NCBI GenBank assembly: GCA_964452725.1
Contig: CAYVMX010000003.1
Location: forward strand, 6,670 to 70,669
From: an uncultured Candidatus Peribacteria bacterium
GTDB taxonomy: Bacteria > Patescibacteriota > Gracilibacteria > JAHISY01
Length of the DNA stretch: 64,000 nucleotides
Direction: 5' to 3'
Shown: one piece after another, positions 4,754 to 56,386 of the stretch
Position numbering within the stretch: the first letter of the stretch is position 1
Layout: each line of letters begins with the position of its first letter
Position numbers and translations under genes: made by a program
Notes under the pieces: model-generated
Seen by the model: the letters and a program-made list of their open reading frames with translations, nothing else
Databases searched by the model: none
What the model was told of the DNA's origin: nothing

Positions 4754-4923
4754 TGGTGCGCCAGGAGGGGTTCGAAGTTAGCTGTATGGTCGTATTAGTC
4801 CCCAGCACAGTTTGCGGTGCGCACCGGCATGATAGTCCAGATTAAAACCTTGTGCCTTTCGAGTTTCTCGACACTCGCTAGTTCTCCACGCAGAACATCC
4901 CACCTGTGGTGGGATAGCCTGTA
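4754..4923 (-). repeat. tRNA-3'-linked element, copy A: 147-nt insert plus a 23-nt repeat of the tRNA-Arg(UCG) 3' end
   Basis: 4754-4776 is identical to 4924-4946 (tggtgcgccaggaggggttcgaa). The insert carries the hairpin tcccacc-acag-gtggga, GTTCTGCGTGG, the palindrome CGGTGCGCACCG (4815-4826) and the terminus ACAGCTAAC. Confidence 0.85.
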
Positions 4924-5000
4924 TGGTGCGCCAGGAGGGGTTCGAACCCCCGACCCCCGGTTCCGAAGACCGGTGCTCTATCCAGCTGAGCTACTGGCGC
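4924..5000 (-). tRNA. tRNA-Arg (anticodon UCG), CCA encoded
   Basis: The reverse complement gcgccagtagctcagctggatagagcaccggtcttcggaaccgggggtcgggggttcgaacccctcctggcgcacca folds as a cloverleaf. Anticodon loop cTTCGga. Confidence 0.95.
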
Positions 5001-9503: not shown

Positions 9504-9742
9504 ACCCTAAAGATCCTGAAATACTCGAAGGTGAAGTCATTGGCTCTGCGCCAGAAAAAAACTCTCAGCGAGAGCAACCACGTGGCGGCGTACCACCACA
9601 GTTTGCTAAAATCCAGTCATCATGTTTGACAGGTTGCTTGATCGCGTTAGTGCTCGTATTGTCTGTAGTGGTTTTTGCGCCCGCACTTTTGTTGTTGCCT
9701 TTGTTGCTCTGGCTCTTTTGGTGGCTGCGCCAAAAGAAGTAG
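9500..9742 (+). CDS. Possible small membrane protein (doubtful)
   Basis: The ATGA start overlaps the methyltransferase stop, and the C-terminus is hydrophobic. However, 121 nt overlap the signal-peptide region of the next gene in another frame, where T-rich DNA reads as hydrophobic in several frames. Confidence 0.3.
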   Translation: MNPKDPEILEGEVIGSAPEKNSQREQPRGGVPPQFAKIQSSCLTGCLIALVLVLSVVVFAPALLLLPLLLWLFWWLRQKK

Positions 9743-21699: not shown

Positions 21700-22230
21700 T
21701 TAGCGTAGTAGTCCGACTCCGAGAGCGAGTGCAATGACAGCTATGACAGCGAAGCCAACTAGCAGCACGCTGTTTTTTATTTTTAGCGCATTGAGATTAT
21801 CTTTGAGTGAGGCGGTTTCTTTTTGGAGTTCATCTTCACGTTGTTTGTACTCCAGTAGTGGCACGGAGGCCTTTACTTGTGCTTCTAGCTGACCGACACG
21901 AAAGCTGGCAGCTTCAAGCTTCTCCTGCTTAGCTTTGAGGTCTGTATTAGCTTCTTCGTAGAGTTTTTGAAAGACCTTTTCTTCACTACTGGGCTGGACT
22001 GTGATACGTTCGGCTCGCGGCTCGGCAGTAGCATTACTGTGTGATTCTGATTTAGTTTTGGGTTTTTTTACGGTTAGTTGTCCTAGTTCGCCAGCATGGA
22101 CAAAGATCGCACGACCCTGTGTTTTGTATTTCAATTTACCAGAGCGTAGCCAGCGATCGAGTGTACGGGTAGACACACCGAGCTGATCGGCGGCATCTTC
22201 ACGCGAGACTGAATACTGGCTGACGGACAT
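21700..22230 (-). CDS. Membrane-anchored helix-turn-helix (excisionase/MerR-like) protein with a coiled coil
   Basis: The start is taken at MSVSQYSV. HTH QLGVSTRTLDRWLRSGKL, a central coiled coil and a C-terminal TM segment VLLVGFAVIAVIALALGVGLL. Confidence 0.6.
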   Translation of the reverse strand: MSVSQYSVSREDAADQLGVSTRTLDRWLRSGKLKYKTQGRAIFVHAGELGQLTVKKPKTKSESHSNATAEPRAERITVQPSSEEKVFQKLYEEANTDLKAKQEKLEAASFRVGQLEAQVKASVPLLEYKQREDELQKETASLKDNLNALKIKNSVLLVGFAVIAVIALALGVGLLR

Positions 22231-22293
22231 GTCTAGACGTAAAATAGCACTTCCAAAACTACTTAGCAAGGGCTGAGAATGTCTGGTAGACAG

Positions 22294-24665: not shown

Positions 24666-24740
24666 GTCCCCATAGTTCAATGGATAGAACGACCCTCTCC
24701 TAAGGGGTAGATCTAGGTTCGACTCCTGGTGGGGACACCA
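24666..24740 (+). tRNA. tRNA-Arg (anticodon CCU), CCA encoded
   Basis: gtcccca/tggggac acceptor stem, anticodon loop ctCCTaa, T-arm ctagg-ttcgact-cctgg. Confidence 0.93.
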
Positions 24741-24935
24741 GCTAGGTTATCTCGCCGTAGGCGGGGGTGTTCTAGCTGGCAATCCTACTGTGATAGAAGC
24801 TGGAAACGTACAAAGCTTGAATTAGCACTACCGTATCGGGGCTGCCCCGTGTACAGACTTCGCTACCGTACAATCAAAAAGCTAGCTTCGACTCCTGGTG
24901 GGGACACCAGCTAGGTTATCTCGCCGTAGGCGGGG
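24741..24935 (+). repeat. tRNA-3'-linked element, copy B: insert plus a 49-nt repeat of the tRNA-Arg(CCU) 3' end and trailer
   Basis: 24718-24766 is identical to 24887-24935. Contains the hairpin ctcgcc-gtag-gcgggg, GTTCTAGCTGG, GAATTAGCACTACCGTATCGG, the stem-loop CGGGG-CTG-CCCCG (24837-24849) and the terminus GTACAATCAAAAAGCTAGC. Confidence 0.85.
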
Positions 24936-24945
24936 CGAATCTTAG

Positions 24946-25119
24946 TGGCGGAAGGGAAGGGATAGTCGCTACGCTCTCCTGCTGCGTCGCTCACAATCAA
25001 GCACATACTGCGCGTGGCTTGTTGTTCGCTATCCTCGCAGGTCGAACCCATGCAAGCACAGGGTGCTCACCAATCCCCTGCCACAACAAAATCTCCACCC
25101 TGTGGCGGAGAACTTGTCA
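24946..25119 (-). repeat. tRNA-3'-linked element, copy C: 156-nt insert plus an 18-nt repeat of the tRNA-Ser 3' end
   Basis: 24946-24963 is identical to 25120-25137 (tggcggaagggaagggat). In tRNA orientation it starts with the hairpin ctccgcc-acag-ggtggag and ends GAGCGTAGCGACT. It is the most divergent copy. Confidence 0.75.
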
Positions 25120-25209
25120 TGGCGGAAGGGAAGGGATTCGAACCCTCGGTACGGTTGCCCGCACACACGCTTTCCAAGCGTGCGCCTTCGACCACTCGGC
25201 CACCCTTCC
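25120..25209 (-). tRNA. tRNA-Ser (anticodon GGA), long variable arm, CCA encoded
   Basis: Reverse complement: ggaagggtggccgagtggtcgaaggcgcacgcttGGAaagcgtgtgtgcgggcaaccgtaccgagggttcgaatcccttcccttccgcca. Confidence 0.93.
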
Positions 25210-25278
25210 GTTTTAGATTGTGATGTTAAAAAAACGAGGCACTCCTGCCACGTTTTGTTTGTGACAGGGCTTACCTTA

Positions 25279-25494
25279 CTAGCTCTCGGAGGAAGTAGCT
25301 GCTTCTTTGATCTTACGCGTGCGCGCAGGTTTCTTGCTCGTGCGTAGGCAGGCGGCGCAGATCTTTTGCTTGATGCCCTCGATACGCTTGGAGATGATGT
25401 TGGGCAGGAAGCGGCGTTTGGTGTGGCGTTTGCTGTGGCTGACGTTATTGCCACTGCGTGGACGTTTGCCACAGGTATCACAGACATTACTCAT
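25279..25494 (-). CDS. rpmB: 50S ribosomal protein L28
   Basis: [32 protein letters not shown] is the L28 signature. Confidence 0.92.
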
Positions 25495-32624: not shown

Positions 32625-33137
32625 TTGGCATCAAAACAAAATCAGCTCGTCATCAAAAAAAATCCTGAACCGTCACAGGTTTTGCATGTGTTTCAATCGC
32701 CTGAGTTTCTTCAGTATGAGCGTGATACTACTTGGTATGCTGGAGCTGGTGTTTTTACAGTTTTGCTTGTGGCGATAGGTATCGTTACTCACGCACTTTC
32801 GCTAGTGGTGGCGTTTTTACTCGCAATCGCGGTGTATTTCCTCATCCACCAGCATCCACCACGCATGATCGATGTTCGGATCACACCAGACGGTATTTAT
32901 CACGGTGAGGAGTTTTTTGCCTTTGGCGAGATCAAACACTTTTGGTTCATCCATGAGCCGCCCTATGTCGCCGATCTCAAGATACGCCTCAAGAGAGCCT
33001 GGCAGCCGATTCGTACTATTCATATCTACGGGCAGGATCTCGCCCAGCTACGAGCAGTCTTCGAGCCATATGTCACTGAGCTACCCGATCAAAAAGAATC
33101 CTTCCCCGATCTCCTAATCCGTGCAATGCGCCTCTAG
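32625..33137 (+). CDS. Hypothetical membrane protein (two TM segments plus a small soluble domain)
   Basis: TTG start. TM pair WYAGAGVFTVLLVAIGIV / LSLVVAFLLAIAVYFLI. First gene of a tightly spaced three-gene unit. Confidence 0.6.
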   Translation: MASKQNQLVIKKNPEPSQVLHVFQSPEFLQYERDTTWYAGAGVFTVLLVAIGIVTHALSLVVAFLLAIAVYFLIHQHPPRMIDVRITPDGIYHGEEFFAFGEIKHFWFIHEPPYVADLKIRLKRAWQPIRTIHIYGQDLAQLRAVFEPYVTELPDQKESFPDLLIRAMRL

Positions 33138-33140
33138 ACT

Positions 33141-34913
33141 ATGGGACTCTCTGCTGCTACCAGTCCGTCACCTCAGTCTCAGTATTTCGACGATCTGTCG
33201 ATTGATACTGATGGCAATTCAGATAATGGTCCTGAGACCAATCTACAAAAGCAACTGAATAATTTAAAAAACAATCCACAAGCGCAAGTTTTAGTGGAAA
33301 AACTCTTGCAATACGAACAACAAATCGCAAATAACACCAGCGGTGAACTAAAAACACTAGCAGCAGAGCTGGCACTTTCATTTGATGCCAATGCCAGACC
33401 TAATGAACGAGCGAGTATAGATATCTTGCGTGACTTGGTAGATCGAGTCCCAGAGAGCCTGACGACCGAGTATTTCACCGAAAATTCAGAGTTACTCGTC
33501 GGCGATTTCAGTATTTTGTTTGATCGCTATCTAAATCCGACTGTCGCAGATGGCTATCAGCAGCTCTTCGCGAGCTTTCGAGCAGCACAGCTAAGCCAAA
33601 TCACGACCGAACTAAAAAACAAAATCCAAACTCAGGTCCAAGCTGGTGATAAGTTGGACGCAGGATTTACCCAGCAGCTAACTGCTGACGTCGACTACCT
33701 ACGCCAGACCAAAGCAGTAGAATTAAAATTACTGGCCAGTAAGGACGGCTCAGCCGAGACTATCAGCCTCGCAGAGCTGAGGGAGGCAGGGATAGAAAAC
33801 CACTCTTCATTTAGTCAAACGTATTTCGAGCTAATGATGCCAGCTGAGTACCCGACACTAGCTGAGCGCAAAGCAAAATTAACAACCTACCTCGAAAATA
33901 TCGCCGAGCGACCCGCTACGGCACACACTAGCGCGAGCCGCGAGCTACTCTATGTCGCTATGCAGCTAGTCGGTGATGGACGTCTGACCGAGCGTGAGAT
34001 GGCACCAGCAGGTGCGACACCAGAGGAGAACCAAATCAGTGCCAAGCTGCGTGCGATTGACTCGCACAAAGTATTCAACGAGACATACGAAGCGGTACTA
34101 AAGGGGTTCAGCTCAGACAGTCCAGAGTACAAAAACCTCCAAGCAGCCTTCGAACAGTCAAGTGACAAAAAGACCAGTAGTGTGAGCGACTTACTCGCGC
34201 TCAAGAGACCAAACAAGCATGAAAGAAAAGAGATCCTAAAGTCGGCAAAAACCGAGGCAGAGCGTACAGAGTTGGACGCACTTATCAGCGATGGTATCCC
34301 GACCAAACTCCTCGCTGCACTCGACCTAGCTCACCGGATCGAGCTAGATCAGCAGGCTGGCTCACTCGATACATCGGGCACATCACTGGGCAAGCACGCC
34401 AATATCAGCAATACGCTCCTCTACCTAGGAGTGAGCAATATCGTTGCGGCTAGTTTGATCATTACGATTATCCAAAATCTCGGCGATCCACTCAGTCTAT
34501 TTACCAATTCGGTCTTCCTCGCCGATGTCGGTATCCTCGGTGCGACAGCACATCACTGGGGCATGCTAGAGCTGGGACCCAAGGCTGGTAAAAAAGAGTT
34601 CAAAACTAAAATAGTCAAATTAGAACAAAATAAAGACCAGACAGTCGCACCACAGGTCAAACAATGGCTCACTGCAATCGACCCAGTTCAATTCAAGCAA
34701 AACTCAGAGCTAGAGCGGTATATCGACGAGCAGGCTCGCGATGGTGTGTATACAGTCGAGGCTGCCGAGCTAAAGTCTTTCTTGCCCAAAGGTGCTGACA
34801 TACCTGTGCTCAACTCTGAGCCCGCCAAACGTCAGCTTTTTCGATTACTCAATCATGCTACACAGTATCACCTAGTGCCGACACGCCAGCTCCTCAAGCT
34901 TTCCAAAAAATAA
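33141..34913 (+). CDS. Hypothetical 590-aa protein, helical, with a C-terminal TM pair
   Basis: Long ORF with normal composition, 3 nt after the previous gene. No recognisable catalytic motif. Confidence 0.65.
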   Translation: MGLSAATSPSPQSQYFDDLSIDTDGNSDNGPETNLQKQLNNLKNNPQAQVLVEKLLQYEQQIANNTSGELKTLAAELALSFDANARPNERASIDILRDLVDRVPESLTTEYFTENSELLVGDFSILFDRYLNPTVADGYQQLFASFRAAQLSQITTELKNKIQTQVQAGDKLDAGFTQQLTADVDYLRQTKAVELKLLASKDGSAETISLAELREAGIENHSSFSQTYFELMMPAEYPTLAERKAKLTTYLENIAERPATAHTSASRELLYVAMQLVGDGRLTEREMAPAGATPEENQISAKLRAIDSHKVFNETYEAVLKGFSSDSPEYKNLQAAFEQSSDKKTSSVSDLLALKRPNKHERKEILKSAKTEAERTELDALISDGIPTKLLAALDLAHRIELDQQAGSLDTSGTSLGKHANISNTLLYLGVSNIVAASLIITIIQNLGDPLSLFTNSVFLADVGILGATAHHWGMLELGPKAGKKEFKTKIVKLEQNKDQTVAPQVKQWLTAIDPVQFKQNSELERYIDEQARDGVYTVEAAELKSFLPKGADIPVLNSEPAKRQLFRLLNHATQYHLVPTRQLLKLSKK

Positions 34914-34914
34914 G

Positions 34915-37212
34915 ATGCTAAAAAAATTCTGCTCCCAGCTTCGATCATACTGCGGACTGACACACCTGCTACTCCTAGTGGTCGTTGTGTTGGCCCTCAT
35001 CGTACTACCCGATAGCACGCTAGCGGCAGATCCAGCGGCTAGTCCTCTCTCAGGATATAACGTCAGCAAGATCGCTGATGGTATCAAGGTCATTGCCTAC
35101 TGGGTAGTTGGTGGTATTTTATTTTTGATTTCGTTTATCGCGATCGGTGTAGGTGATCTCATGGACTCGACCTTCATCTACGATGCTGGCATGGGTGAGA
35201 CGCTCTACACTATGTGGAGTACTATTCGTGACTTCGTCAATATCGGATTCATACTCGCGCTACTCGGCCTAGCGGTGCTCGTGATACTCGGACTGGGAGA
35301 CGAAGGTGGACTCGCGAAACTCAAGAAAATCCTACCCAAGCTCATTATTGGTTTAATACTTGTTAACTTTACATTCTTTGGTACACGGATCGTACTGACT
35401 ACCTCCGATGTCCTCGCGACAGCTATCTTTAGCTTACCCGGTATGGTCAACAAAGTAACTACAGGACCTCCCATTCCACTAAAGACCATTTGTGGTGATC
35501 TCAGCTTGGAGGCGTGTAAGACTCTCAATAGAGACAAGATCCTCTTCTTTTGGAATCCAACTACAAAAAAGGTAGAAGTCCCAGGTGATTTGAGTACAGC
35601 GCTGAAGGAGAGAATAGATCAAATCAATACTAACTACTCTGAAGGTGGTATCTTTGTAAAAGACTTAAGTGCTAAATTTGACAAGAAAAATGCGATGTTT
35701 ACGACGATGCTCTACATGCTCCACGTAGTGGACCTACAACATATCAAATCTCCTCAACAAAACGTCAGTGCAATAGTCGGTTCGTTATTTTCCATTGTCT
35801 TGGCGGTTATGCTCGGCGTGCTTGTCTTTGCGATGGGCTTGGGTTTGATCGTACGTATGGTCGTACTCTGGGTGCTGATCGCACTTTCGCCGATCCTAGT
35901 GTTGGGTTGGGTGTTCAAAGAGCTCGTACCACAAGTCAGCGAAGCTGCTGGCGGTCTAGATCTCGATAAGCAGTTCATCACCAACGCTTTTCTGCCTGTC
36001 TTCATCGCCGTGCCGATGTCGATTGGTTTTACTATGATCTTTGCCGAAGGTACTTTTACACAGATTACGGGTATCTATGGTGCGACGGAAGGTGCGCAAG
36101 TCGCCTTCTTCAAACTCATTTGGCTCGTCGCTGCCTTCGTGATCATCTGGATAGGTACGTTCAAAGCGCTGGGCAAGAGCGAAGCAGTCGGTAAAATAAC
36201 AGAAAAAATCAAAGGTACAGCGGAGGGTTTCGCTGGTGGAGCGATGAAGACGCTGTCGTATATGCCAGTGATACCAGGACTCAGCAAAGACGGCTCTCTG
36301 AGCTCTATCGGTTCTGTGCTTTCGGCACCATCGAAGATCGAAGGCATGCTCGCTGGACAGACGAGTACGCGCTCTCGTGAGATAGCGACACCTATGGCTA
36401 CATCGCTGGGTTATCGTCAGGAGTTCCGTGCTGATAACGCCTTTGCAACGGATGTAAAGGCGAGTAGCAGTATCAAAGATCTGGCACAAGCCATCAAGAC
36501 TCACCACGATAGCAATGGTACAAATGTAACACTGACTCCAACATTAAAAGATAAACTTACTAATATAGGGTTACCCAAAGCTATCGTAAACAGTAGTAAA
36601 GATTTGGCTTCCCTGCTCGCCAATACACAAATCCGTGGTAAGTTGGCTAAAGAAGGTGGAGCTGCCGGTAAGGAAGTCAGTGACAACTATCTGTCTTACA
36701 ACAAAGTATTTAAAGATAGACAAAAAGATGCCGAAGCAGCGAAAAAGGAGACAAGTGCAGCGGCAGCCGCTGGTGCTGGTTCGTTGACAGCTGGCAGCAA
36801 ATATAGCGGGAATGATGTCTCAGGCTCAACAAACGCAGGTATTCAATCTAATGATAGAGATCTTAACTTTTTCACTGGCAATGTTGCTGGTGATAGAGGT
36901 GCGCTGCTTTATAAGCAAGGTGATAAATACCACTATGTCGATAGTACCAAAGCTCAGATCGAGCAACAGCTCAATACAATCACTGACACAAAGTCTGAAT
37001 CTGGCGCTGTCGTGAGTGCGATCAAACATCTGGAGAAAGCGATGGGTACGGGTATGATGATCGATGTAATCAATGCGATGATTGCTCAGATGGATGATGG
37101 AGCAAAGACTGCATGGAAAAGCAAAGCAGGAGGAGATTTCAACAATGAGCTGGACAATAATGATGTCGGAGCCAAGTGGGACGCTGGATCTGGTAAGTTT
37201 GAAAAAAAATAG
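34915..37212 (+). CDS. Polytopic membrane protein, possibly TrbL/VirB6-like, with a long soluble C-terminal tail
   Basis: Signal/anchor sequence, about 8 TM segments in the first 430 aa, and a low-complexity Ala/Gly/Ser/Lys-rich tail. The start is 1 nt after the previous stop. The VirB6 assignment rests on topology and size only. Confidence 0.6.
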   Translation: MLKKFCSQLRSYCGLTHLLLLVVVVLALIVLPDSTLAADPAASPLSGYNVSKIADGIKVIAYWVVGGILFLISFIAIGVGDLMDSTFIYDAGMGETLYTMWSTIRDFVNIGFILALLGLAVLVILGLGDEGGLAKLKKILPKLIIGLILVNFTFFGTRIVLTTSDVLATAIFSLPGMVNKVTTGPPIPLKTICGDLSLEACKTLNRDKILFFWNPTTKKVEVPGDLSTALKERIDQINTNYSEGGIFVKDLSAKFDKKNAMFTTMLYMLHVVDLQHIKSPQQNVSAIVGSLFSIVLAVMLGVLVFAMGLGLIVRMVVLWVLIALSPILVLGWVFKELVPQVSEAAGGLDLDKQFITNAFLPVFIAVPMSIGFTMIFAEGTFTQITGIYGATEGAQVAFFKLIWLVAAFVIIWIGTFKALGKSEAVGKITEKIKGTAEGFAGGAMKTLSYMPVIPGLSKDGSLSSIGSVLSAPSKIEGMLAGQTSTRSREIATPMATSLGYRQEFRADNAFATDVKASSSIKDLAQAIKTHHDSNGTNVTLTPTLKDKLTNIGLPKAIVNSSKDLASLLANTQIRGKLAKEGGAAGKEVSDNYLSYNKVFKDRQKDAEAAKKETSAAAAAGAGSLTAGSKYSGNDVSGSTNAGIQSNDRDLNFFTGNVAGDRGALLYKQGDKYHYVDSTKAQIEQQLNTITDTKSESGAVVSAIKHLEKAMGTGMMIDVINAMIAQMDDGAKTAWKSKAGGDFNNELDNNDVGAKWDAGSGKFEKK

Positions 37213-49950: not shown

Positions 49951-49963
49951 GACAAACCAAAAG

Positions 49964-49997
49964 ACCCATTTGCCAGATTGGTAAGTGGGTTTTTTTG
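49964..49997 (+). terminator. Rho-independent terminator
   Basis: ACCCATTTGCCA-gat-TGGTAAGTGGGT followed by TTTTTT. Confidence 0.75.
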
Positions 49998-50001
49998 TGA
50001 C

Positions 50002-50178
50002 AGAACCTCCGTGGTGGATCGGGTGGGACTTGAAGCTAGCTGCGTGATTGTACTAATTCAAAGTCGGTACACGGTGCGCACCGATACGGCAGAGCTAATC
50101 CCAGCTTTGTGCGGACGTGAGTCCTCGTCCACCACAATCACCACGAAGAACCTTGACACTACGGGTCAAGAACCTCCG
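50002..50178 (-). repeat. tRNA-3'-linked element, copy D: 134-nt insert plus a 33-nt repeat of the tRNA-Lys 3' end and 10 nt of trailer
   Basis: 50002-50034 is identical to 50169-50201. In tRNA orientation: hairpin cttgac-ccgtagt-gtcaag, GGTTCTTCGTGG, GGATTAGCTCTGCCGTATCGG, the palindrome CGGTGCGCACCG (50072-50083), CCGTGTACCGACTT and the terminus GTACAATCACGCAGCTAGC. Confidence 0.85.
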
Positions 50179-50254
50179 TGGTGGATCGGGTGGGACTTGA
50201 ACCCACGACTATCGGCTTAAAAGGCCGCTACTCTACCAACTGAGTTACCGATCC
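50179..50254 (-). tRNA. tRNA-Lys (anticodon UUU), CCA encoded
   Basis: Reverse complement: ggatcggtaactcagttggtagagtagcggcctTTTaagccgatagtcgtgggttcaagtcccacccgatccacca. Confidence 0.95.
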
Positions 50255-50312
50255 AAAATTTAAATTTAGCCAAGGAATTTTAGCAGAAATTTAAGTACGG
50301 TAAAATAAACTC

Positions 50313-55959: not shown

Positions 55960-56036
55960 GGACCCTTAGCTCAGTTGGTTAGAGCAGCGGGCTCATAACC
56001 TGTTGGTCCCTGGTTCAAGTCCAGGAGGGTCCACCA
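55960..56036 (+). tRNA. tRNA-Met (anticodon CAU; elongator-type, could be tRNA-Ile2 if lysidinylated), CCA encoded
   Basis: ggaccct/agggtcc acceptor stem with a paired 1-72 position and anticodon loop ctCATaa. It lacks the three G-C pairs characteristic of an initiator anticodon stem. Confidence 0.9.
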
Positions 56037-56226
56037 CGTGGGTTCTCCCGCCGTAGGCGGGAGGTTCTACGTAGTGCGATGCTGCGGTAGTGCACCAGAT
56101 CGCCACAGAGATCGGATTGAACCTGCCGTATCGGTGCGCACCGTAGCGAGGAGCGTAGCGACAAGCGACCACAAACCCTGATTGAATAACAATCAAACAG
56201 CTAGCTAAGTCCAGGAGGGTCCACCA
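56037..56226 (+). repeat. tRNA-3'-linked element, copy E1 (full, ends with a 20-nt repeat of the tRNA-Met 3' end)
   Basis: Hairpin ctcccgcc-gtag-gcgggag, GGTTCTACGTAG, GGATTGAACCTGCCGTATCGG, the palindrome CGGTGCGCACCG (56132-56143) and the terminus AACAATCAAACAGCTAGCT, followed by aagtccaggagggtccacca. Confidence 0.85.
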
Positions 56227-56342
56227 CGTGGGTTCTCCCGCCGTAGGCGGGAGGTTCTACGTAGTGCGATGCTGCGGTAGTGCACCAGATCGCACAAAGA
56301 TCGAATTAGACCTGCCGTACCGGTGCGCACCGTAGCGAGGAG
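56227..56342 (+). repeat. tRNA-3'-linked element, copy E2 (tandem, 3'-truncated)
   Basis: 56207-56293 is identical to 56017-56103 (87/87). The next ~49 nt carry about 6 differences, including one indel. The second palindrome is at 56321-56332. Similarity ends at 56342 without a terminal tRNA fragment. Confidence 0.8.
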
Positions 56343-56386
56343 TGGAAGCTGTGTGATATAGTACGACTAGTTGGTCGTGAGTTTAT

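Follow-up and report, generated by a model that had tools for sequence, protein, structure and literature searches.

A structured, protein-less element at tRNA genes of a Candidatus Peribacteria bacterium that appears to be a tRNA-specific insertion

How does a transfer RNA (tRNA) gene come to be followed by a second copy of its own 3' end, and what is the structured sequence that separates the two? The question is posed by a 64-kb stretch of DNA from an uncultured Candidatus Peribacteria bacterium, termed the window in the following, for which an earlier note made from the sequence alone had described five tRNA genes in this arrangement. We refer to the inserted element as E, to the T-loop-to-CCA end of the resident tRNA as X1 and to its downstream copy as X2. 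ARAGORN and Rfam, which were used to call tRNA genes, recover all five at the positions given in the note. Each gene encodes its CCA end, and in tRNA orientation each locus contains the tRNA, E with a length of 144–170 nt and X2. As detailed below, E appears to represent a hitherto undescribed insertion element that is specific to tRNAs and kept in the tRNA transcript.

The repeat pairs are exact (49/49, 18/18, 23/23, 33/33 and 87/87 nt), have the periods that had been reported before (169, 174, 170, 167 and 190 nt) and cannot be extended. They constitute the only direct repeats of at least 18 nt within a distance of 300 nt in the 64 kb, with none found in 20 shuffles, and at every locus the duplicated piece belongs to the resident tRNA. 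The left junction of E is always located directly after A76 of the CCA end and is followed by 4–6 unconserved nucleotides, and the conserved right end, AGCTAGC or in two copies AGCTAAC, borders directly on X2 in every case. The latter comprises exactly T54–A76 (23 nt) in five of the seven full-length copies of the main family. At both Met copies it covers A57–A76 (20 nt) with one filler base in front, which suggests a shared loss of 2 nt, and in the Ser-type element it covers A59–A76 (18 nt). With one junction at CCA and the other at the T-loop, both coincide with the only two motifs that are common to all tRNAs (GTTCRA and CCA). Wherever the repeat extends beyond this core, X2 is followed by a re-copied start of E, with a length of 10 nt at Lys (33 nt in total), 26 nt at Arg(CCU) (49 nt) and about 150 nt at Met (87 nt or more). 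Since the Arg(CCU) and Lys copies of a sister genome contain no such re-copied start after X2, these extensions are secondary and most simply originate from templated repair or unequal exchange. The variable length of the duplication, which the note had held against a fixed stagger, is therefore a weak argument, as the core length of 23 nt is essentially constant and the excess consists of E. The distal copies of the convergent tRNA-Arg(CCU) and tRNA-Ser genes face each other across a spacer of 10 nt in both genomes, although the spacer itself cannot be aligned (cgaatcttag versus aaaatttaaa), which identifies X2 as the original tRNA 3' ends.

These repeats are not a product of the assembly or of chance local duplication, an explanation that is effectively refuted and whose probability we consider negligible. 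The architecture is found in independent assemblies, including the window, the metagenome-assembled genome (MAG) GCA_054033235.1 and Logan contigs spanning X1-E-X2, it is present at 5/5 loci in the window but in none of the shuffles, and its structure is conserved and covaries. The repeats do disturb assembly, as illustrated by L122 (VAPL010170865.1, 5146–5391), an independent contig of this organism from a metagenome, which ends 22 nt into X2 of tRNA-Lys, one base before CCA, and which shows that repeated tRNA ends fragment short-read assemblies. This contig was the only one recovered upon scanning metagenome contigs with a degenerate block of 30 nt.

Between the two junctions, E contains a series of shared blocks, which in order are a hairpin following CCA, GGTTCT, CCGTATCGG, a palindrome and GTACAATCA leading to AGCTAGC. 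The palindrome of 12 nt, CGGTGCGCACCG, is confined to the elements (4 matches compared to 0.22 expected). The earlier note had described these blocks for the five inserts, except for the palindrome in the divergent Ser copy. This copy, which belongs to a different subfamily known from two copies, has only the hairpin in common with the main family and is not detected by R1, a covariance model of the main family that was built from seven copies. When scanned over 164 kb of this and related genomes, as the note had proposed, R1 matches only the known copies, and neither BLAST nor the model locates any copy away from tRNA genes in the same sequences. A conserved small open reading frame (ORF) within E was considered and rejected, as none was found with a start codon or a conserved frame. 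The proposal of one protein-less element family tied to tRNA genes is sustained. In addition, the Met element carries an internal insertion of about 25 nt with GGAGCGTAGCGAC (window 56143–56170), which also makes up the 3' terminus of the Ser-type element (GGAGAGCGTAGCGAC, 24964–24985) and which suggests that recombination or nesting between the subfamilies may have occurred.

The hairpin at the start of E, termed P1, is reflected in strong covariation, as had been anticipated, but it is longer than originally described, since it already starts within the CCA of the tRNA itself, at C74, and extends over about 17 bp. In its outer part, CCA and about 6 nt are paired with about 6 nt and UGG, its centre reads 5'-AGG-U-UCU-3' on both strands and its inner stem is GC-rich and contains 7–9 bp. 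Cognate halves pair with a mean energy of −25.9 kcal/mol compared to −13.9 kcal/mol for non-cognate combinations, with 2–4 G.U pairs per copy. In a model-guided alignment of eight copies, which is itself fitted to the structure, 11 of 17 pairs show double-sided changes and 96% of cells are paired, and neither the covariation score nor the count of double-sided pairs obtained from this fitted alignment was reached in any of 500 shuffles. Only 34–51% of cells are paired in slid controls. A G.U and a U.G pair, which flank an invariant U.U, are themselves invariant in 8/8 P1 copies. Because this core would amount to three consecutive mismatches in DNA or on the opposite strand, the molecule under constraint is the tRNA-sense transcript, and it is the sense strand that shows the lower folding energy in 8/8 copies. 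Both properties disfavour the suggestion of the note that the opposite strand would act as primer-binding site or guide. The second supported helix, P4, is formed by the palindrome, which in the sister contigs L123 and L195 has gained U.G but never C.A and which is replaced by CGGGGCNGCCCCG in both Arg(CCU) orthologues, in line with the compensatory change recognised previously.

Beyond P1 and P4, no helix in E is supported, and no tRNA-specific segment of E was found to be complementary to X, as duplexes between the body of E and its cognate X are no better than non-cognate ones. A minihelix of E with X as in the RtT repeats of Escherichia coli was rejected based on these duplex energies, with the apparent anti-X segment of the Lys copy not being general. 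We have equally rejected a tRNA-like fold of E and X2, for which there is no T-stem or acceptor partner, and an archaeal-type bulge-helix-bulge intron at position 53/54, where reading of the junction sequences did not reveal the respective pairing. P1 is followed by no more than GUUCU or GUUUU, whereas a terminator nearby (49960–49996) contains seven U, which makes read-through into E likely. Although the inner stem of P1 together with UUCU or UUUU was flagged as terminator-like in two copies, the tract is short and the core of P1 is not of Watson-Crick type. Judging from these features, P1 is less likely to stop transcription efficiently than to act as a processing stem or to terminate in a leaky manner.

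Evidence for E being an insertion comes from related genomes. Our sample of the clade comprises two genomes, the one of the window and a sister (GCA_054033235.1, also present as Logan run SRR33956860), with eight tRNA loci, and it is complemented by four outgroup contigs. Window and sister share 92% identity in UvrB, 84% in an M50 protease and 85% in Nfo. The sister genome contains the same architecture at 4/4 orthologous tRNAs (Table 1), and within the clade E occupies 8/8 tRNA loci examined. In contrast, outgroup sites are empty, with an unrelated trailer located directly after tRNA-Met in L120 and L200 and after tRNA-Arg(CCU) and tRNA-Ser in L190. The elements are thus insertions, as the note had assumed, and their absence from outgroup tRNAs and presence in the clade indicates a gain in a narrow lineage. 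In a rough control of 28 tRNAs across all collected sequence, a downstream repeat of the tail is found only in this clade and at tyrV of E. coli.

Table 1. Coordinates of tRNA genes, inserted elements (E) and duplicated tRNA ends (X2) in the window, and corresponding loci of the sister genome.
Feature	Position	Strand	Evidence or remark
tRNA-Arg(UCG)	4924..5000	-	ARAGORN + Rfam; CCA encoded
E at tRNA-Arg(UCG), 147 nt	4777..4923	-	model R1, 132.6 bits; P1 from 4926 down to 4886
X2 at tRNA-Arg(UCG), exact 23-nt T54-A76	4754..4776	-	repeat search
tRNA-Arg(CCU)	24666..24740	+	ARAGORN + Rfam
P1 of Arg(CCU) copy (CCA+N6 paired with N6+UGG, inner GC stem, central G.U/U.U/U.G)	24738..24779	+	
E at tRNA-Arg(CCU), 146 nt	24741..24886	+	83% identity to orthologue, L188 8938-9089
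X2 (23 nt) and re-copied first 26 nt of Arg(CCU) E	24887..24935	+	orthologue contains X2 only
X2 of tRNA-Ser, 18-nt A59-A76	24946..24963	-	10 nt from Arg(CCU) repeat
Ser-type element, 156 nt, internal GGGTTCGA motif	24964..25119	-	P1 from 25122 down to 25081
tRNA-Ser(GGA)	25120..25209	-	ARAGORN + Rfam
tRNA-Lys(UUU)	50179..50254	-	ARAGORN + Rfam
E at tRNA-Lys, 144 nt	50035..50178	-	model R1, 146.9 bits
X2 at tRNA-Lys (23 nt, 50012-50034) and re-copied first 10 nt of E (50002-50011)	50002..50034	-	
tRNA-Met(CAU)	55960..56036	+	ARAGORN + Rfam
E at tRNA-Met, 170 nt, ~25-nt internal insertion with GGAGCGTAGCGAC	56037..56206	+	
X2 of tRNA-Met, 20-nt A57-A76	56207..56226	+	
Second tandem E at tRNA-Met, 3'-degenerate, no third X	56227..56385	+	94.9% over 117 nt (BLAST); model R1, 85.1 bits
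Sister tRNA-Met	L123		E 149 nt; X2 20 nt
Sister tRNA-Arg(CCU)	L188		E 152 nt; X2 23 nt
Sister tRNA-Ser	L188		E truncated; X2 18 nt
Sister tRNA-Lys	L195		E 151 nt; X2 23 nt

Two loci have been rearranged between the genomes. The sister tRNA-Ser(GGA) (L188 9244–9333) carries a different acceptor stem (GGAGAGG), and an ORF encoding a free-standing GIY-YIG nuclease of 80 residues (L188 9334–9726, minus strand; Pfam 65.5 bits) lies before it. Beyond this ORF, a displaced 5' fragment of tRNA-Ser (at about 9631–9662) and an altered anticodon arm can be recognised, and the locus looks like a homing-endonuclease cassette by which the resident tRNA gene may have been replaced. Downstream, the Ser-type element is truncated on its 5' side at the internal GGGTTCGA motif. 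At the Lys locus, a block comprising tRNA-Lys, the 35 nt upstream of it, E and X2 is inverted between the genomes (window 50012–50290, L195 9695–9979), with flanks that are colinear (an SLH protein and terminator on one side and the nfo/AP-endonuclease gene on the other) and with one breakpoint located precisely at CCA of X2. As the outgroup contigs L197 and L200 do not contain tRNA-Lys at this locus, the module of tRNA, E and X2 may move or invert as a whole.

The conservation of E and X2 exceeds what would be expected from the divergence of the two genomes. Whereas four-fold degenerate sites of UvrB, the M50 protease and Nfo have approached saturation with 43–50% identity, the conserved blocks of E are intact, with orthologues showing 83% (Arg(CCU)), 65% (Lys) and 58% (Met) identity and paralogues 51–66%, and X2 is identical between the genomes in 61/61 positions (100%). 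Even where tRNA-Ser was replaced in L188, the X2 downstream still matches the end of the window tRNA-Ser. Both E and X2 are thus maintained, for which selection, concerted evolution with X1 or turnover could be responsible. A pair of 23-bp direct repeats at a distance of 150 bp should readily be deleted, and the persistence of such pairs at every orthologous site suggests that E either has a use or is inserted anew time and again. At the same time, the partial tandem copies described above and the 1–14 places per E. coli genome that match RtT point to frequent unequal exchange between X copies, which would also homogenise them.

The same properties are compatible with a host-functional RNA devoid of present mobility. 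In this case, E-X2 would be a companion RNA that combines a structured body with a 3' tail identical to the tRNA and that is released from the tRNA precursor like RtT in E. coli. X2 itself would be under selection, for example as 3'-processing signal or as decoy or competitor for factors reading tRNA 3' ends, and the presence at all tRNAs would reflect function instead of mobility. Such a role would account for the preservation of E (58–83%) and X2 (61/61) across synonymous saturation, for the retention of all orthologous sites despite repeats that favour deletion, for a structure residing on the sense strand, for an architecture equivalent to that of the processed RtT RNA and for the ancestral sequence of X2 next to the replaced tRNA-Ser. 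It is less easily reconciled with the lack of a cognate pairing partner in E, which would leave X2 as unprotected single-stranded tail, with the erosion of its T-loop part at Met and Ser and with the absence of an established function for RtT itself. Moreover, function alone leaves the spread to every tRNA with cognate duplication unexplained, and an insertion phase would still be needed. We thus regard a purely host-functional RNA as a serious but on balance rather unlikely explanation.

Our preferred account, which we hold tentatively and with somewhat less than even confidence, describes E as a trans-mobilised, lineage-specific and protein-less insertion element of tRNA genes, which today persists as a trailer that is co-transcribed with the tRNA and in which P1 handles 3' maturation or termination. 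For E to enter, one strand would have been broken at T53/54 and the opposite one after A76, and the fill-in of this stagger would have generated the cognate duplication of 23 bp. The responsible enzyme would act in trans, be encoded outside of the window and recognise the universal T-loop and CCA, and entry at such universal motifs would have allowed one family to colonise many tRNAs without destroying them. Once inserted, E would be co-transcribed with its tRNA and we infer that P1 might serve as processing stem for an RNase III-like endonuclease or as weak terminator, both of which would lead to correct maturation of the tRNA 3' end. The identity of X1 and X2 would be kept by unequal exchange or ectopic repair, with the same process giving rise to the tandem re-copies of 10, 26 and about 150 nt of E, and the element would persist as supplier of 3' processing or termination signals for the tRNA gene.

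Several points weigh against this account. The insertion enzyme was not found in the 64-kb window or in the sister loci. E is devoid of terminal inverted repeats, and its left end is variable (GCTAGG, TACAGG, CGGAGG, CGTGGG and others) and complementary to AGCTAGC on the right only by chance in the Arg(CCU) copy. Together with the lack of conservation in its left 4–6 nt, this is unusual for the end of a transposon. A target duplication of 23 bp is far longer than in known bacterial transposons. Retention at orthologous sites, despite synonymous divergence having reached saturation, would be atypical of a selfish element and would fit a host-functional RNA equally well, the identity of X2 could be a consequence of direct selection instead of concerted evolution, and the sample consists of two genomes of the clade with eight tRNA loci.

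The nature of the repeats brings to mind site-specific integration. As described in PMC2647930, which cites Williams 2002, insertion by integrases into the T-loop of a tRNA leaves repeats extending from the T-loop to the 3' end, which are the classical signature of these enzymes, and the islands and prophages of this T-loop class resemble the loci studied here in having an intact tRNA upstream and a T-loop-to-3'-end repeat with the original 3' end in distal position. E could accordingly be viewed as a mini integrative element consisting of attP only, in which a circle of X1-E with its own tRNA 3' end would recombine at the T-loop by a tyrosine integrase encoded elsewhere. Integration would restore the tRNA and displace the resident 3' end as X2, and P1 would be the terminator brought along for the restored tRNA. 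The fact that only the T-loop-side end of E is conserved (AGCTAGC) but not its junction with CCA would be expected for a sole T-loop joint. Three direct TACAR boxes, read from the alignment, could be arm-type sites, and att-site repeats commonly extend past CCA. Nevertheless, E differs from the described islands by its size of 150 bp, the absence of genes and of an integrase nearby, and by a selected sense-strand hairpin that includes CCA. Arg(CCU), Arg(UCG), Lys and Met all harbour the same E family, and Ser carries a related hairpin. At least four or five different tRNAs are thus occupied, and each shows its own cognate repeat, while an X carried by the element could not switch its target without generating a dead hybrid tRNA. 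AGCTAGC and the T-stem do not form inverted repeats around the T-loop, unlike usual core-type sites, the damaged T-loop in X2 of Met and Ser would block excision, and terminators do not feature a core like the invariant G.U/U.U/U.G of P1. No integrase or excisionase-integrase pair was found in the 64 kb or in 45 kb of sister loci, and we consider this origin unlikely.

A Pfam scan of about 50 window ORFs did not identify any integrase, transposase, reverse transcriptase, TnpB/IscB or HNH/GIY-YIG protein, which agrees with the note in its lack of a recombinase, transposase or reverse transcriptase in the 64 kb, and the precomputed Pfam hits listed for 45 kb of sister loci do not include a recombinase. 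Excisionase-like HTH_17 proteins are encoded in the window (21700–22269, minus strand), in L188 (5808–6332 and 11493–11708) and in L190 (19234–19791), and since they occur in E-positive and E-negative genomes alike, they are not specific to E.

The note had also put forward a copy-based mechanism, and a copy-based or retro process may have operated. In one version, the processed E-X2 transcript would be reverse transcribed at a T-loop nick of a tRNA gene, where the bottom strand ending in ...TCGAA-3' could pair with UUCGA following AGCUAGC and the complementary DNA ending in ...TGG with the top strand at its CCA end. This would open every tRNA gene to entry, with a duplicate that is always cognate, and a tRNA-primed variant, where the complement of X acts as primer-binding site, would belong to the same class. 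Both junctions are indeed located at universal microhomologies, with E owning the UGG that pairs with CCA. Its 3' end is conserved and its 5' end variable, as in target-primed retroelements, and it is very likely transcribed with the tRNA. The 18- and 23-nt tRNA 3' segments also recall the lengths of primer-binding sites and of tRNA 3' fragments (tRF-3). In the primer-binding sites of retroviruses and other long terminal repeat (LTR) elements and in tRNA capture by the Neurospora Mauriceville retroplasmid, a tRNA 3' segment of 18–23 nt is found adjacent to a conserved element and with CCA as the junction, as in E. In contrast to these systems, the segment and the selected structure of E are in tRNA sense, which disfavours the tRNA-primed variant with its need for an antisense template, and there is no reverse transcriptase or LTR in the window. 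No gene for a reverse transcriptase or endonuclease was found in the window or the sister loci, no poly-A or other retroelement hallmark is seen, and the copies are old and divergent, with no sign of a recent burst. The idea is wholly inferential, and we regard it as very unlikely.

In a more general version, E would be a mobile RNA-templated or RNA-guided element, whose E-X2 transcript uses the UUCGA and CCA microhomologies or its 23-nt tail as guide and is inserted by target-primed synthesis into whichever tRNA gene, so that the cognate duplication would arise by itself. If true, E would represent a bacterial and protein-less parasite of tRNA genes, similar to short interspersed nuclear elements and dependent on an unrecognised reverse transcriptase or nuclease, but we judge this to be improbable.

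Known families of small mobile elements share some properties with E. Like miniature inverted-repeat transposable elements (MITEs) and the palindrome-associated transposable elements (PATEs) of the IS200/IS605 group, it is small, non-autonomous, structured and present in multiple copies. The arrangement of E and X2, with a scaffold of about 150 nt ahead of about 20 nt that are identical to the target, also has a formal likeness to the omega-RNA of TnpB with its 3' guide. In contrast to MITEs, it does not contain terminal inverted repeats and its duplication is 23 bp (18–20 bp in Ser and Met) instead of 2–10 bp. IS200/IS605 elements insert 3' of a tetra- or pentanucleotide and do not produce any duplication, and the window does not encode TnpA, TnpB or IscB. 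Unlike either group, E copies are only 51–66% identical and located exclusively at tRNA genes. Clustered regularly interspaced short palindromic repeats (CRISPR), integron attC sites and the homing spacer of a CRISPR-associated transposon were rejected because their sizes and positions do not fit. A blastn search of E against phages and plasmids did not give a match, and no real copy was detected in the viral contigs scanned. A scan of genome contigs with CCGTAYCGGTGCGCACCG, a short and GC-rich pattern, gave 119 random matches, none of them real.

The closest analogue of E is found in the 178-bp repeats of the tyrT and tyrV loci of E. coli (RtT/RttR, RF00391). At tyrV of strain K-12 (L194), which we have read directly, tRNA-Tyr precedes three full tandem units, each of which has a length of about 160 nt and ends with the last 18 nt of the tRNA (A59–A76); the original description reportedly counted 3.14 copies. 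The correspondence with E includes a segment of about 160 nt located directly after CCA, a subsequent exact copy of the tRNA 3' end, whose 18-nt boundary after A58 equals that of the Ser copy, and the potential for tandem reiteration. RtT forms part of the tRNA transcript, from which it is set free by processing, and the role of the resulting small RNA is still described as unknown (10.1101/2024.07.17.603846). In contrast to E, which is present at every tRNA examined, RtT is found at one locus and with one tRNA species. It also contains an internal segment that is complementary to the repeated tRNA end, which has no counterpart in main-family E, whereas a CCA-pairing hairpin equivalent to P1 is absent.

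There is no sequence or model homology between the two. In the Rfam comparison proposed in the note, no family other than tRNA scored above threshold, in either gathering or E-value mode. The best match to the RtT model, 14.6 bits compared to a gathering threshold of 45 bits with an E-value of about 2–6, was obtained for the Ser copy of the window only and not for the Arg(CCU), Lys and L188 Ser copies. This chance-level match can in large part be ascribed to the similarity between the 3' ends of tRNA-Ser and tRNA-Tyr. Both the Ser-type element (24964–25119, minus strand) and the RtT unit (L194 1367–1537) contain an internal T-loop-like GGTTCGA and GCG-rich AGCGA repeats, and based on these motifs both may derive from degenerate tRNA copies, although homology is not demonstrable at 14.6 bits. 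A search of the literature for earlier accounts of such elements in the ultra-small bacteria of the candidate phyla radiation (CPR), or of tRNA-linked repeats, recovered only work on E. coli RtT and on integrases.

If confirmed genome-wide, the bacterium would be the first organism where essentially all tRNA genes carry a conserved structured 3' module together with a duplicated tRNA end. The tyrT repeats, for 45 years a curiosity of a single locus, would then become a class with a second and far more extensive example, which provides comparative material on origin and role. The location of both junctions at the only universal tRNA motifs suggests a general route for a small element to colonise tRNA genes without killing them. 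The RNA-processing machinery of CPR bacteria is reduced and poorly known, and a candidate for a new signal in the processing of tRNA 3' ends in these organisms is provided by the CCA-sequestering hairpin with its invariant G.U/U.U/U.G core. On a practical level, repeats of tRNA ends could mislead the annotation of tRNAs and att sites in MAGs and break short-read assemblies at tRNA genes.

The surroundings of the elements are those of an ordinary chromosome. Flanking genes include carB, uvrB, efp, lepA, tgt, queH, murJ and others, whose closest homologues are annotated as Peregrinibacteria, Gracilibacteria or Patescibacteria, the window has a GC content of 50%, and its long ORFs are open under the standard bacterial code. 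Between tRNA-Ser and the gene of the M50 protease, the window encodes ribosomal protein L28 (25280–25495, minus strand; Pfam match in Logan contig L199), which the raw ORF list hides beneath a spurious ORF of greater length (25029–25487) that reaches into the tRNA. Finally, three successive large ORFs of 170, 590 and 765 residues (32625–37212, plus strand) show no Pfam match at E ≤ 1e-4, and their unannotated homologues adjoin carB in L190 and L192.

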